Below are positions 16,609 through 22,508 of a DNA stretch of 24,154 nt, piece by piece. How positions within the stretch are numbered: position 1 is the first letter of the stretch; every line of letters begins with the position of its first letter. The stretch is taken from IMG/VR virus record IMGVR_UViG_2537562172_000007; one strand, 5' to 3'. A program made the translations under genes and the position numbers. The DNA is from a virus. Lineage: Duplodnaviria; Heunggongvirae; Uroviricota; Caudoviricetes. The notes beneath the pieces are model-generated. The model made no database searches. It saw nothing but the letters and a program-made list of their open reading frames with translations, and had not been told where the DNA came from.

Positions 16609-18457
16609 AGTTAACATTACAAGATATAAGTAATGGACGCACTCCCAATTAGTCTATTTAAATCGCCACGAGTTTAACTGACAACCCATGATCAATTATG
16701 AATTGCAACTATTTCTGTAGTCACTTTTGTGGGGACAGTCCACAAAACTGCCAACATCCGCTTCTTGCTCTTAGCGGACATTAGCATAGGCTATTTACCA
16801 TAACGCCTCATTACGCGCACCGCCCAGACTGACTCAGCGCGTTTCTGGCATATCCCCGGTAAAACAAGTAACAAACCACCCGAAAATGAACACCAGAAAC
16901 GCGACTTAAGAATCTACCCTATGAATGGATATGCACTCAACCGAATCGATCTTGGTTTCAATCTTTTTTATCGGGATCAGGCTTCTTTTTAGGTAACTTC
17001 GGGGGCTTAACTTGCTGATGACTTTGCGTTCGGCGCGTAAGCCAGGGATGGTCAGCTTTAGGTTTAACATAGTATTTTGAGCGTAAATCAATACGGGCAT
17101 TATCCACTCGTTCATGGACACTCTTTTCATCATCCAGTGGTATAGGCTCCGGGCCATCAACATACTTTTCCCAGCCCAGCGCTTTCCCGTCATACAGAAC
17201 GTTAATTTCACCGTCAAAGTTCTCGCATACAGTAACAACCGAATGCCTAAGTCGATATCCCCGGCCCTCACTGCGTACCTGAAACGCACTGCTTTTGTAC
17301 TGGAAAGTGAGATTTTTAGACAGAACGCGCTTCGCCTGTAGGCTGAAGATATAACCCAGTTCCTCTTCAGAATGGTGCACATCAAGATGAGCATTATCAG
17401 TAGTACGAGGCGACGTAGCGAACCGGTTGTTATAGGCTTCAATAAAGGTCGGCAACCATGCATTTGCTGTTTCAATATCACTGATATTCTGAAGCCGCAT
17501 TTCTTTGACCAGCCTGTCCTGTAGTGTCTGATTGGCGCGCTCTACCCGCCCTTTTGCCTGCGGGCTGTTGGCATGGATTGGCTCGATGCCCAGTGTCTTT
17601 ATCGCACGAGTGAACTGGGTCAGCTCACCTTCCCGCTCTGGGTTATTTACCCTGAATATACTGTGTCTATCAGAGTAGAGAGCGAGCGGTACGCCATGAT
17701 CATTAAGGTAACCCCGGAGGGTTTCCATGTAAGCCCGGGTTGTTTCAGCAGGCACAAAACGCAACGCCATCAACGCACTGGTGGCATCATCAATGAAAAC
17801 GATCAGTGTACATCTGGGGCCTCGATTTTCAAACCAGTCATGAGGTGAGCCATCAATCTGGATCAGTTCACCGTAAGATGGTCGTCGCATGCGGCGTTGA
17901 TATATACGGGCAATTTTACGACGGCGTTCACGCCATAACCCCTCTTCTATCATCCACTTTCTGAGAGTTTCAACGGATAAAGATAAACCGTGTATCTCGC
18001 GCAATTTTTCGCACGCAAACGTAGGTCCAAAATCAGCGTAACGGCCTTTGAGGAGTGAAATTACTGTTGCTCTGAATTCAGTAGAAAAGGAATTATTAGG
18101 ACGCTTTCCACGTCGGTGGGAAACCAGACCAGAAGGCCCTTCATTTCTATACCGTTGCACCAGACGTTTAACCTGCCGAATAGAAATGCCAATGCGTGCC
18201 GCAGCTTGTTCCTGAATAATCTGAAGTCGGTGGAGTTCCTTATGACTCATCGTAACAGTCTCTTTGATCATGAAAAATCCCCCAGAGAATTGTCTGGGGA
18301 CATTTTAGAATGGTTCAAAGGGGACATTACAGCTTGGTGTTAACAATAGCCTGCTTCTCCGTGCCTTTCGGCACGTAAGAGGCTAACCTACATGTGTCTA
18401 GCATGAAATTGGCCTCAGATTAATGTTAAGCGTCTTGCAGGACGCGTAATGTTAACT
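16609..18457 (-). mobile_element. insertion sequence carrying one rve-type DDE transposase (family unassigned, IS481/ISNCY/IS21-like); boundaries tentative
   Basis: Tentative ends from a perfect 12-bp inverted repeat: AGTTAACATTAC at 16609-16620 and GTAATGTTAACT at 18446-18457; no target-site duplication recognised. Confidence 0.35.
16958..18271 (-). CDS. DDE transposase, retroviral-integrase (rve) fold with N-terminal HTH
   Basis: 437 aa; HTH region (IGISIRQVKRLVQRY), catalytic-core motifs LIQIDGS, ALYSDRHSIF and SPQAKGRVERAN; GGGGGA Shine-Dalgarno upstream of the ATG. Confidence 0.85.
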   Translation of the reverse strand: MIKETVTMSHKELHRLQIIQEQAAARIGISIRQVKRLVQRYRNEGPSGLVSHRRGKRPNNSFSTEFRATVISLLKGRYADFGPTFACEKLREIHGLSLSVETLRKWMIEEGLWRERRRKIARIYQRRMRRPSYGELIQIDGSPHDWFENRGPRCTLIVFIDDATSALMALRFVPAETTRAYMETLRGYLNDHGVPLALYSDRHSIFRVNNPEREGELTQFTRAIKTLGIEPIHANSPQAKGRVERANQTLQDRLVKEMRLQNISDIETANAWLPTFIEAYNNRFATSPRTTDNAHLDVHHSEEELGYIFSLQAKRVLSKNLTFQYKSSAFQVRSEGRGYRLRHSVVTVCENFDGEINVLYDGKALGWEKYVDGPEPIPLDDEKSVHERVDNARIDLRSKYYVKPKADHPWLTRRTQSHQQVKPPKLPKKKPDPDKKD

Positions 18458-18605
18458 GGGGCTTTTCTCTATCTGCCGTTGGTGTCCATGCCCGAGGCAG
18501 ATAGCCTCAAGCACCCGCAGTCATTCTACTTAACTAAGATTTCCCCGCAAACCGTTTTTGTCCAGCACAGTAAATATCCAACTAAACCAATGGAGTTCGC
18601 TGTAT

Positions 18606-18785
18606 TTACCGCCAGTATTCAATGCACATGACCGCCATGAACACCCCTAAAAAAAGGGCATTTATATATCCAAATATTAATATCAAAACATCAACTTTTT
18701 CCATATACCTTGCTGTGAAGATGATGGGCATACATGATGCGAACAACCAGAACGCAACAAACAAAAACTGCAATGCGTTTTTCAT
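18606..18785 (-). CDS. small two-TM membrane protein, 59 aa
   Basis: ATG at 18785 preceded by AGGAGG with 4-nt spacer; MKNALQFLFVAFWLFASCMPIIFTARYMEKVDVLILIFGYINALFLGVFMAVMCIEYWR has two hydrophobic helices. Confidence 0.4.
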   Translation of the reverse strand: MKNALQFLFVAFWLFASCMPIIFTARYMEKVDVLILIFGYINALFLGVFMAVMCIEYWR

Positions 18786-19564
18786 TATTCCTCCTACAAT
18801 CAATGTGCAATTACATTTAAACACACCTCAATTTGGCCGGACATATAAATATCTAAACCAGAAAAAATCACTTACATAGCGTTACAAACTCTTTAGTCTA
18901 AAGGTTCATCGTAAAACATTCCCCATACTTATCAGTCCGTTCCGCGCCAGGTAGCTCATTGCCTTATCTGGCAACCTGTAATCAGGTTTCCGCTTTTTCA
19001 GTTGGCTGGTCGTTTAACCGACATAGTTAATCCATTAATCTAGTTGCCGGATGTTGGTGGATTTTCGCGTTTTAGTTGTTCATAAAAGTGCACAGCTTTA
19101 ACCAGTTCTTCTGATGTAACTGGGACTGGTGAGGCAGTGAATAAGGCCTGAATTTGATAGTTCGGCCTGTCGTTACAATCCTCTTTTTTCGGTACATATT
19201 TCCAGTCACCAGACCACTACTTCCCCTGAAAGTCCGTAACGCCTTTTTTCACGTAGCGATATCGCCATGCCACTGGTTTTGCTTGCCCCGCCGTTTCATG
19301 CCCTTCCTGATAATTAATCTCGCTCATTCATCGCCCCACTCATCACAATATGCTTCGACCGGAGTTTTTCCCGCTTCATAGTCATCACGCTAGGATTCGA
19401 CATCAGCAGCACTTCCACCGCGTAACTCACCATAGTCCATTAATAGTTCATCCCGCTCTTCAAAACTGATGTTATATTTAGCTGAACAAAAATCAGCCAC
19501 TTTGTTCTTCCTCATCGTCTTTTATTTCGTGGTATGAGTAATTGCAGTAGTTAAAGAAAATTTC

Positions 19565-19675
19565 TTATGCTCCGTCATGAATTTCCTCAGGTGTTGCGTC
19601 ATCGTCCACTTCGAATACATCCTCAAAATCTCCACCAGCTATTCCCGTTTCAATAATAATTTTGAACTTTCGCAT
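19565..19675 (-). CDS. hypothetical acidic 36-aa protein (MRKFKIIIETGIAGGDFEDVFEVDDDATPEEIHDGA)
   Basis: Manual translation; a GCCGCCC-GAAA-GGGCGG hairpin sits directly upstream of the ATG with AGGAGG further 5'; very tentative. Confidence 0.2.
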   Translation of the reverse strand: MRKFKIIIETGIAGGDFEDVFEVDDDATPEEIHDGA

Positions 19676-19937
19676 TTCACTACCGCCCTTTCGGGCGGCC
19701 TCCTGATGTTCTGAGGGTGCAGAAATCCATCCGGTTAAGGATTAAATTTTATTTACAGAACTGAATTTAATTATTCAGATATACGTATCTGTAGCCTTAC
19801 GAATCTACTCACTGGATGCCTCTTTCATAAAAATAATCCAGTGGGTTTTATCGTTTTTTCCCTGTTCGTTGACAGATAACAGGTTTTCTGTCTGTCAGTG
19901 CCAGAATCTGGCTTACCGGTATTTGCGTTTCATTCCA

Positions 19938-20294
19938 TTAAAAAATCAGAACGCCGTGCGGCCTCAACACCCGAAAGGCTTCTTTAAATCTCTGTCGCGA
20001 ATCATCACGCCAGGCATCTTTATTCAGCCGTCCATATTTCTTTCCCATCCAGGCGTTATCACCAACACTCTCAAGATACGGAGGGTCTAATACAACCATC
20101 GAAAAAGATGCGTCTGCAAATGATAATGCACGAAAATCTGCGATAATGTCAGGGCTGATAATCAAGCGTCTCCCATTGCGTAATGTGTATCCTTCTTTTC
20201 TGATATCGCTGAATATCGCCCGTTCGTCAGACTTATCGAACCAGAACATGCGGCTGCCACAGCACATATCAAGAATGGTTGCCGGTGCACTCAC
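19938..20294 (-). pseudogene. N6-adenine/N4-cytosine (Dam-like) DNA methyltransferase, N-terminal fragment
   Basis: 118-aa ORF with SAM-binding motif I (ILDMCCGS) and catalytic motif IV (DPPY); ends before any target-recognition or C-terminal region; no MTase-like continuation in any frame downstream. Confidence 0.6.
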
Positions 20295-20557
20295 TGCGCC
20301 ACGTCCTGAAAATTACCCTGATAGAAAGCCAGTATGCGCTGCATAACTTCGCTCTTCCGGCACTCGCGACAGATTATGTTTAGGCGACTGTCGTAGCGAC
20401 GTATTTCTCCGTCAGGTGATGACCAGATAAGGTCCGGATCAACCACAGCAGGTTTCTTCACCTTTGCCCTCGAGAGTTTTTTGCGGGCGTTTTGCCAGTC
20501 CTTACGCGCCTGTTCAGAGGGGAATAACCCGTATCCGGAGCTTAAGTTGCACGCCAT
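20291..20557 (-). CDS. hypothetical protein overlapping the methyltransferase fragment start (GTGA overlap)
   Basis: 88-aa ORF with no Shine-Dalgarno at its ATG; an internal GTG at 20461 with GAGGG upstream would give 56 aa. Confidence 0.3.
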   Translation of the reverse strand: MACNLSSGYGLFPSEQARKDWQNARKKLSRAKVKKPAVVDPDLIWSSPDGEIRRYDSRLNIICRECRKSEVMQRILAFYQGNFQDVAQ

Positions 20558-22508
20558 TGGGTGGGTTAAGCATAAATGTATTCCTGGTGCTAAATGGCCC
20601 GAAATTCAGGCAGAGATGCGCATCTGGAAAAAACGTCGCGAAGGTGAACGCAAGGAAACCGGAAAATACACGTCTGTTGTTGATCTCGCCCGCGCCAGAG
20701 CCAATCAACAGTACACTGAAAATTCAACAGGAAAAATCAGCCCGGTCATTGCTGCCATTCATCGCGAATACAAGCAGACATGGAAAACACTGGATGACGA
20801 ACTGGCCTACGCTCTCTGGCCTAGTGATGTGGATGCCGGAAACATTGACGGCAGCATCCATCGCTGGGCAAAAAAAGAAGTTATCGACAACGACCGCGAA
20901 GACTGGAAGCGTATCTCGGCATCAATGCGCAAACAGCCTGATGCCCTTCGCTACGACCGCCAAACTATTTTTGGCCTTGTCCGTGAGCGTCCGATCGACA
21001 TTCACAAAGATCCCGTAGCACTGAACAAATATATCTGCGAATACCTGACGACAAAGGGCGTGTTTGAGAATGAAGAAACAGACCTGGGCACTGTTGATGT
21101 TCTCCAGTCATCAGAAACACAAACTGATGCAGTGGAAACTGAGGTATCTGATATCCCAAAAAATGAAACCGCGCCGGAAGCTGAACCATCTGTAGAGCGT
21201 GAGGGGCCGTTCTATTTCCTCTTCGCAGATAAGGACGGAGAAAAATACGGTCGCGCAAACAAACTCTCTGGTCTGGATAAGGCACTGGCTGCTGGCGCCA
21301 CTGAAATCACAAAAGAAGAATATTTTGCCCGAAAAAATGGCACATACACGGGCTTACCGCAAAATGTAGATACCGCTGAAGATTCAGAACAACCAGAGCC
21401 GATAAAAGTTACCGCTGACGAAGTAAACAAAATTATGCAGGCAGCCAATATCAGCCAGCCTGACGCCGATAAGTTGCTTGCTGCATCACGTGGTGAATTT
21501 GTTGAAGGGATTAGTGACCCGAATGATCCGAAATGGGTTAAGGGGCTCCAGACCCGCGATTCTGTGAACCAGAACCAGCATGAATCGGAACGGAACTACC
21601 AAAAAGCGGAACAAAACAGTCCAAATGCGTTACAAAACGAGCCAGAAACGAAACAGCCTGAACCAGTAGCGCAACAGGAAGTGGAAAAAGTCTGCACCGC
21701 CTGCGGTCAGACCGGCGGCGGCAACTGCCCTGATTGTGGCGCGGTGATGGGCGACGCAACATACCAAGAAACATTCGATGAAGAGTATCAGGTTGAAGTT
21801 CAGGAAGATGATCCGGAGGAAATGGAAGGCGCTGAACATCCACACAAGGAGAACACTGGCGGCAATCAGCATCACAATAGCGATAATGAAACTGGCGAGA
21901 CGGCAGATCACCCAATTAAGGTGAACGGTCATCACGAAATCACATCCACCAGCAGGACGTGTGACCATCTAATGATCGACCTTGAAACCATGGGAAAAAA
22001 TCCTGATGCCCCGATCATCTCAATAGGTGCAATATTTTTCGATCCGCAAACCGGAGATATGGGACCGGAATTTAGTAAGACTATCGATCTGGAAACTGCT
22101 GGCGGAGTCATTGATCGGGACACCATTAAATGGTGGCTTAAGCAATCACGCGAAGCGCAATCTGCCATTATGACCGATGAAATCCCGTTAGATGATGCAC
22201 TGTTACAATTGCGAGAATTTATCGACGAAAACTCCGGTGAATTTTTTGTTCAGGTTTGGGGAAATGGAGCCAACTTCGACAACACGATTTTGCGCCGTTC
22301 ATACGAACGGCAGGGGATCCCCTGCCCGTGGCGTTACTACAACGATCGCGATGTACGCACAATCGTTGAGCTGGGGAAAGCCATAGACTTCGATGCCAGA
22401 ACGGCTATTCCATTCGAAGGTGAGCGCCATAATGCACTTGATGACGCCCGTTACCAGGCAAAAATACGTTTCAGTTATCTGGCAAAAACTGATCCCGAGT
22501 CAGGCTGA
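20481..22508 (+). CDS. phage exonuclease with C-terminal DnaQ-like (DEDDh) 3'-5' exonuclease domain
   Basis: Exo motifs MIDLETMG, WGNGANFDNTIL and HNALDDARYQ in the last ~190 aa; acidic low-complexity linker with CTACGQTGGGNCPDCG zinc ribbon; start uncertain (TTG at 20481 or ATG at 20616). Confidence 0.8.
   Translation: MRAFCQSLRACSEGNNPYPELKLHAIGWVKHKCIPGAKWPEIQAEMRIWKKRREGERKETGKYTSVVDLARARANQQYTENSTGKISPVIAAIHREYKQTWKTLDDELAYALWPSDVDAGNIDGSIHRWAKKEVIDNDREDWKRISASMRKQPDALRYDRQTIFGLVRERPIDIHKDPVALNKYICEYLTTKGVFENEETDLGTVDVLQSSETQTDAVETEVSDIPKNETAPEAEPSVEREGPFYFLFADKDGEKYGRANKLSGLDKALAAGATEITKEEYFARKNGTYTGLPQNVDTAEDSEQPEPIKVTADEVNKIMQAANISQPDADKLLAASRGEFVEGISDPNDPKWVKGLQTRDSVNQNQHESERNYQKAEQNSPNALQNEPETKQPEPVAQQEVEKVCTACGQTGGGNCPDCGAVMGDATYQETFDEEYQVEVQEDDPEEMEGAEHPHKENTGGNQHHNSDNETGETADHPIKVNGHHEITSTSRTCDHLMIDLETMGKNPDAPIISIGAIFFDPQTGDMGPEFSKTIDLETAGGVIDRDTIKWWLKQSREAQSAIMTDEIPLDDALLQLREFIDENSGEFFVQVWGNGANFDNTILRRSYERQGIPCPWRYYNDRDVRTIVELGKAIDFDARTAIPFEGERHNALDDARYQAKIRFSYLAKTDPESG

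Follow-up and report, generated by a model that had tools for sequence, protein, structure and literature searches.

The described proteins closest to the methyltransferase studied here are those of PHROG 954, exemplified by WP_069723371.1 of E. coli (161 aa), gp44 of Listeria phage A006 and the product of gene 28 of Streptococcus phage T12. The Dam types (EcoDam/T4 Dam and the Dam of phages T1/VT2) have in common with this family a SAM-dependent Rossmann fold and a motif IV of the (D/N/S)PP(Y/F/W/H) type, and they too include phage orphan enzymes, but the proteins of the family are about 100 residues shorter and have no recognisable target-recognition domain. Another short, methyltransferase-like ORF, yfdM of the cryptic CPS-53/KpLE1 prophage of E. 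coli K-12, is annotated 'putative methyltransferase' and lies beside yfdP/yfdQ/yfdR. The intact homologue of our gene in E. coli PK8241 sits in a yfdP/yfdQ/yfdR-type context; yfdM may be a comparable gene, and it belongs to a different prophage, CPS-53, the gene described here being one of Qin. For the element as a whole, the described counterpart is the Qin (Kim) prophage of E. coli K-12.

The window, which is the whole stretch of 24,154 bases that we analysed, was 99.975% identical over its full length to the chromosome of E. coli O141:H4 strain P13-6, and it is an entire E. coli cryptic prophage of the Qin type. This assignment follows from the chromosomal position and the characteristic gene content in the annotation of the P13-6 locus, which covers the entire window and places a ydfJ fragment at one border and int at the other, with rspB beyond int. 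The Qin genes found were pinQ, tfaQ, nohA, cspI, rrrQ, essD, cspB/F, ydfT/quuQ (the Q antiterminator), ydfU, rem, hokD, relBE, flxA and ydfW; after ydfW come a fragment of an ISNCY transposase, two pseudogenes, the methyltransferase ORF, a DUF977 fragment, a truncated exonuclease gene, xis and int. The gene set, its extent from the ydfJ fragment to int and the location of rspB beyond it are shared with Qin of K-12, whereas dicC-dicA-dicB-ydfD are gone from the window through a deletion of 3,743 bp. The K-12 prophage matched our query only inside the exonuclease part and is without the DUF977-methyltransferase segment. A genome labelled 'DH5alpha' (NZ_CP026085.1, 4.83 Mb) has the methyltransferase allele while MG1655 matches the exonuclease part only, and this label may be wrong.

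The gene resembles the members of PHROG 954 in the order of its motifs, in its GTGA overlap with the upstream gene and in its early replication/recombination position, but it differs from the intact members in being a pseudogene, with a nonsense codon, a frameshift, changes at seven conserved positions and a motif IV that reads DPPY. Two overlapping minus-strand ORFs, of 118 aa (19938..20294) and of 88 aa (20291..20557), had been proposed in the initial annotation, which described the former as a truncated Dam-like methyltransferase starting with GTG, and both ORFs are real. The TGA of the 88-aa ORF overlaps the GTG of the 118-aa ORF (GTGA), with an AGGA 11-14 nt upstream of the GTG. This GTGA overlap recurs in two homologous loci in which the upstream product is a different one (PGAP 'hypothetical protein'), and its retention suggests that the two frames may be translationally coupled. 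Motif I and DPPY were present as described: in the 118-aa product, ILDMCCGS (motif I) occupies residues 7-14 and DPPY residues 70-73, about 57 residues apart. PGAP annotates this ORF as an intact CDS, under the name class I SAM-dependent methyltransferase WP_001384020.1.

The 118-aa ORF had been taken for a 5' remnant, with no methyltransferase-like sequence downstream in any frame. Alignment of the window DNA with the DNA of G8, a strain with the same type of prophage, of NZRM4165 and of PK8241, whose gene is intact, showed that the 3' part is in place: directly after the TAA and in the same frame comes WNETQIPVSQILALTDRKPVICQRTGK, which corresponds to residues 120-146 of the intact homologues. 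When the stop is read through in frame, the product is ...GVLIF*WNETQIPVSQILALTDRKPVICQRTGKKR, and the intact 161-aa homologue of E. coli PK8241 has ...GVLIFKWNETQIPVRQILALTDRKPVIGQRTGKGDKTHWIIFMKEGNQ in the same region. The TAA (19938..19940, minus strand) is codon 119 and stands where the intact homologues have AAA (Lys119) in the DNA alignment. The remainder beyond it (19805..19937, minus strand) comprises codons 120-162, with the ancestral TAG stop at 19805-19807, and stays in frame until a second inactivating lesion, a frameshift 26 codons 3' of the nonsense codon. This frameshift is due to one additional G in a run that reads GGG in the window (19860..19862, minus strand) and GG in the homologous loci L003 and L004. 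Correction of the 1-nt insertion allowed the reading to go on as NDKTHWIIFMKEASSE, and repair of both lesions gave a 162-aa protein ending in ...GKNDKTHWIIFMKEASSE and colinear with its intact relatives, one of which, P0010 (162 aa, 86% identical to the window gene), ends in ...GKNDKTHWIIFVKEATSE. Nucleotide homology reached window position 19808 in the comparison with L004 and position 19675 in that with L003 (NZRM4165).

Since in-frame codons persist after the TAA, the gene was inactivated in place and its 3' part was not lost. As read from these alignments, the ancestral gene spans 19805-20294 and is fully present, the 118-aa ORF being codons 1-118 and the TAA of a decayed 162-codon methyltransferase gene; it is a pseudogene by point lesions and not a deletion remnant. 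The 26 in-frame codons after the TAA could also be held to favour a bypass of the stop, or an assembly error, with the full-length enzyme still being made. However, termination at TAA is efficient in E. coli, the identical TAA is found in 473 independently assembled complete genomes, and the frameshift and the decay of conserved residues also speak against synthesis of a full-length enzyme, to which we give practically no chance. A terminator-like hairpin followed by TGATTTTTTA was noted at 19949-19972 (minus strand), across the end of the 118-aa ORF, and the nonsense A>T change stretches the T run at this hairpin from 5 to 6; the hairpin and its T run are probably there by chance, since such sites were no commoner than in shuffled sequence.

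The window ORF matched the PHROG 954 profile with an E-value of 1.7e-56 over profile positions 52-165 of 229, and 1,485 homologues were found, the best intact one at 86% identity; 'DNA methyltransferase', the name of this PHROG, is an annotation label only. The hallmarks of the family are DxCCGS (motif I), DPPH (motif IV), FKWNE and KTHW, and the complete domain of 150-170 aa includes the FKWNE and KTHW strands (beta5-beta7), while the window ORF ends at 118. Among the 120 best homologues, motif IV was DPPH in 114 and DPPY in one, and 93 proteins were 155-180 aa long. The short distance between motifs I and IV, which had been read as a sign of truncation, is normal throughout the family (about 55-57 residues).

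A profile search over 1.84 billion representative proteins yielded 316 clusters (50% identity) at E<1e-30, matching profile positions about 3-158, and the member from Listeria phage A006, used as a query, yielded at least 8,000 clusters at 90% identity. Members at 45-64% identity were found in temperate phages of Enterobacteria, Acinetobacter, Vibrio, Gordonia, Listeria, Staphylococcus, Streptococcus, Enterococcus, Bacteroides, Porphyromonas and Akkermansia. As judged from these homologues, the family is a very large group of small (150-170 aa) putative orphan class I SAM-dependent methyltransferases of temperate phages. The conservation across phyla is unusual, the copies of E. coli and of Gordonia phage being 64% identical and the identity to those of Listeria and Streptococcus phages being about 50%. 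Within the family C12 is invariant, and C11 and C39 are nearly so. Many representatives of the 50%-identity clusters (P0246, P0251, P0253, P0254 and P0263) are 200-250 aa long, with an N-terminal extension of 50-80 aa before the core; a DUF6291 match was obtained for one extension and no Pfam hit for the others, and no consistent domain was seen. Such extensions may reflect start codons called wrongly, or an accessory domain that is genuine.

The description of the gene as 'Dam-like' was not borne out. The Dam models (MethyltransfD12, PF05869) were absent from a Pfam scan of the window ORF at E up to 1, and also from scans of 92 full-length relatives at E up to 0.1. The N6_N4_Mtase model, the only DNA-methylase model of Pfam to hit the window ORF, scored 17.0 bits on it, against a cut-off of 26.7, and matched one of the 92 relatives at E up to 0.1; this sub-threshold score and the order of the motifs, motif I (7-14) preceding motif IV (70-73), place the ORF outside the beta-class N6/N4 enzymes. 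Methyltransf_11/25 gave only marginal matches to the window ORF, and Methyltransf_11 matched 91 of the 92 full-length members. No family-specific model was found in Pfam or NCBIfam, and a search of the PDB by sequence, with a profile of the 92 members, gave no meaningful relative (best E=0.03, to a generic methyltransferase).

The structure of the intact homologue P0010 was modelled with AlphaFold from a mixed enterobacterial and Firmicute alignment (pLDDT 86.6, pTM 0.85); this model replaced an earlier one built from close relatives only, which had a pLDDT of 67 and weak fold matches. The protein is predicted to be a minimal Rossmann methyltransferase, having the seven strands and the glycine-rich motif I of the class I fold. 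Its elements in the model are beta1 (7-11), beta2 (26-30), a hairpin (34-46), beta4 (64-70, ending in DPPH), a helix (95-109), beta5 (110-121), beta6 (140-144) and beta7 (150-156). The nearest folds in the PDB were those of Bud23, Trm11, the M.TaqI catalytic domain and PH0226 (probability 1.0, TM 0.5-0.6), which makes the resemblance a generic class I one, and no Dam structure was found in the top 50 PDB matches. A fold search of viral models returned generic class I methyltransferases and one unnamed member of the family, and gave no pointer to the substrate. On this model the 118-aa product would end within beta5 and would be without beta6 and beta7 of the Rossmann sheet.

In phages A006 and T12, as in PK8241 and G8, the gene is part of the early replication/recombination module. 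In these four contexts (Qin-type G8, PK8241, Listeria A006 and Streptococcus T12) no restriction endonuclease is annotated beside it, its neighbours being DUF977, DUF7167, ead/Ea22-like, DnaD-like loader and DUF1642 genes. The methyltransferase gene is thus an orphan enzyme gene: of the initial suggestion that the locus is a relic of a phage orphan methylase or of a restriction-modification-like module, the first part stands, as a decayed phage orphan methylase with a premature end, and the second falls, for want of any endonuclease annotated nearby. The full-length version whose search had been recommended exists as intact homologues of 161-162 aa, again with no endonuclease annotated beside the gene. 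A Dam-like methylase reduced to its 5' part by a deletion, possibly from a restriction-modification module, would account for the early stop of an ORF that carries motif I and DPPY, and genuine deletions do cut genes nearby. This origin is nevertheless refuted by the continuation in the same frame at 19805-19937, and the lack of a Dam model match, the sub-threshold N6_N4_Mtase score, the DPPH of the family and the four contexts devoid of an annotated endonuclease also speak against it, so that we consider it extremely unlikely. Inactivation of a complete orphan gene where it stands is the reading that we retain.

The intact relatives are most likely orphan N-methyltransferases acting on the exocyclic amine of nucleic-acid bases, with DNA as the likeliest substrate, a role that we infer from the (D/N/S)PP(Y/F/W/H)-type motif and the position of the gene. 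By analogy with other phage orphan methylases, they would be expressed early, together with the phage replication genes. Because no target-recognition module can be recognised in the family, its members may instead act on RNA or on another molecule. A search of the literature with the RefSeq accessions, PHROG 954 and DPPH/motif IV gave no report of a substrate or of methylation activity. A paper on pneumococcal phage describes a predicted N6-adenine methylase for which adenine methylation was undetectable, but no link of that gene to the PHROG 954 family was found.

The exact 61-mer around the TAA was found in 473 of 5,426 complete E. coli genomes, in one copy each and always on the chromosome, so that about 9% of the complete genomes keep the nonsense allele. 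The initial annotation would have been contradicted by homologues of exactly this length that are widespread and intact. Widespread they are, but the 118-aa forms found represent one near-identical decayed allele: among those listed, all had an identity of 86% or more with the window ORF. By their sequences, they appear to be the same allele or its recombinant, from one prophage lineage, with no independently conserved short form. The exact 61-mer around the TAT codon of Tyr73 (20076..20078, minus strand) was found in four of 476 allele carriers, and the other 472 differ. This codon is CAT (DPPH) in the family and in strain G8, and the window has a private C>T change at 20078; from these comparisons, the DPPY motif is best read as a recent private H73Y substitution in an already dead gene.

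The window allele deviates from the consensus at seven of the 68 columns with a conservation of 90% or more (C39R, D40N, P58S, F69L, H73Y, G102R and K119*), while the 84 intact members deviate at 1.17 such columns on average and at six at most. K119 (in FKWNE) is invariant in both alignments A2 and A3, and H73 is invariant in A3; D40, F69 and G102 are invariant positions too. Among the residues lost through the stop, little or no variation is seen at K119 (invariant), W120, Q124, P138 and K149-W152. Given the strands and the conserved residues that would be missing or altered, the 118-aa product is almost certainly inactive, and it is probably hardly expressed.

The 88-aa ORF is chimeric. It opens with six chance codons (MACNLS), which are antisense to the exonuclease gene, and continues with the C-terminal 82 codons (S59-Q140) of a DUF977 gene for 140 aa; it matched Pfam DUF977 (PF06163) with E=6e-15 over profile positions 62-134 of 134, and PGAP describes it as 'incomplete, missing N-terminus'. 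The junction lies at 20531..20540, in an imperfect 10-bp microhomology (GTATCCGGAG versus GTAGCCGGAG on the DUF977 side of G8), where homology to G8 stops at 20540 on the DUF977 side and starts at 20531 on the exonuclease side. Comparison with strain G8 (L002, 6832-10584) showed that 3,743 bp are missing from the window. On the other side of the junction, the exonuclease gene (20531..22508, plus strand) is truncated at its 5' end and retains codons 163-823 of the 823-aa G8 protein. This remnant has a 3'-5' exoribonuclease Rv2179c-like domain and is also listed by PGAP as 'incomplete, missing N-terminus'; its native start is lost, and the TTG start listed for the ORF (20481) is DUF977 antisense sequence.

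In G8 the 140-aa DUF977 gene is preceded on the same strand by a gene for a 321-aa hypothetical protein, ydaT and dicC, and dicA, dicB, ydfD, the 823-aa exonuclease gene and xis are on the opposite strand. The deletion thus removed the 5' end of the DUF977 gene, the 321-aa hypothetical gene, ydaT, dicC, dicA, dicB, ydfD and codons 1-162 of the exonuclease gene. The same junction was found in 82 of the 5,426 genomes. The deletion is probably later than the nonsense mutation, an order that rests on the counts of genomes with the nonsense allele (473) and with the deletion (82), which are counts and not a phylogeny. A single event took away the immunity and toxicity region of Qin (dicC, dicA, dicB and ydfD, with ydaT and the 321-aa gene). 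Loss of dicA alone is reported to be lethal, and the joint loss of the repressor and its toxic targets would avoid this lethality; the deletion is one route by which a cryptic Qin prophage rids itself at once of the repressor and of the toxic dicB/ydfD module.

The two minus-strand ORFs are opposite to exo-xis-int (plus strand from 20481), as had been pointed out in the initial annotation. In the undeleted prophage of G8, the methyltransferase gene belongs to the dicC-side operon, and the dicA-dicB-exo-xis-int operon runs divergently from it; the opposite orientation is therefore the normal lambdoid layout of divergent operons. The deletion took the divergent dicA/dicC control region and with it the natural promoter region of the DUF977-methyltransferase operon. 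A scan for promoters and terminators found no more sites than in shuffled sequence, with no convincing promoter upstream. On the 3' side of the methyltransferase gene (18200-19900, minus strand), all the genes annotated by PGAP are decayed in the near-identical P13-6: a DUF7167 gene has an internal stop, a hypothetical gene has a frameshift and a stop, and the ISNCY transposase is truncated at its C-terminus. The interval represents a scarred part of the early-right operon (dicC/cro-side, replication and nin-like) of this Qin-type prophage.

The listing of the 118-aa ORF by PGAP as intact in hundreds of genomes counts against its being a pseudogene, as does the stable retention of the allele in about 9% of complete E. 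coli genomes, and the ORF might be thought to encode a functional short protein, such as a SAM-binding or regulatory fragment, that is kept by selection. Its annotation as intact in 473 genomes, the retention of motifs I and IV and the existence of an unrelated copy (L009) that stops one codon later (W120*), so that truncations cluster there, agree with such a function. But the 118-aa forms listed are all one near-identical allele, seven conserved positions are altered, including H73 of the catalytic motif and the invariant D40, F69 and G102, and beta6 and beta7 would be missing according to the AlphaFold model. Loss of the dicC-side promoter region, the want of a convincing promoter upstream and the decay of the adjoining genes point the same way, and we regard a selected short protein as very unlikely. 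The RefSeq entry of the 118-aa form as an intact CDS is thus misleading and should be flagged as a pseudogene, and this form is no candidate when methylome motifs are assigned.

The best joint explanation, which we hold to be very probably correct, is that an orphan methylase gene was killed in place and that a separate deletion of 3,743 bp occurred in the same Qin-type prophage. The AAA>TAA change at the invariant Lys119 and the +1 G frameshift inactivated the 162-codon gene where it stands, and the truncated product has substitutions at six more conserved positions. The separate deletion, at a short microhomology, made the chimeric 88-aa ORF and stripped away the promoter region on the dicC side from which both ORFs would have been transcribed. 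It all amounts to the ordinary decay of a well-known prophage, and the ORFs are already annotated in hundreds of genomes. The decayed copy of the window is the wrong place to study the parent family, although the family itself may deserve attention.

Separate stops were observed in other prophage copies of the gene. The copy of NZRM4165 (L003, 4121-4594) has W95* (TGG>TAG), and a copy on a Logan metagenomic contig (L009, 3001-3480) has W120* (TGG>TGA) and is otherwise intact and in frame. With K119* of the window this makes stops at three codons, two of them adjacent, which could be due to chance or to selection against activity. That these independent stops stem not from neutral decay but from selection, in hosts with methylation-dependent restriction (McrBC, Mrr), against a promiscuous orphan methylase that is active is improbable; were this nonetheless the cause, the family would be an uncharacterised, host-toxic modification enzyme.
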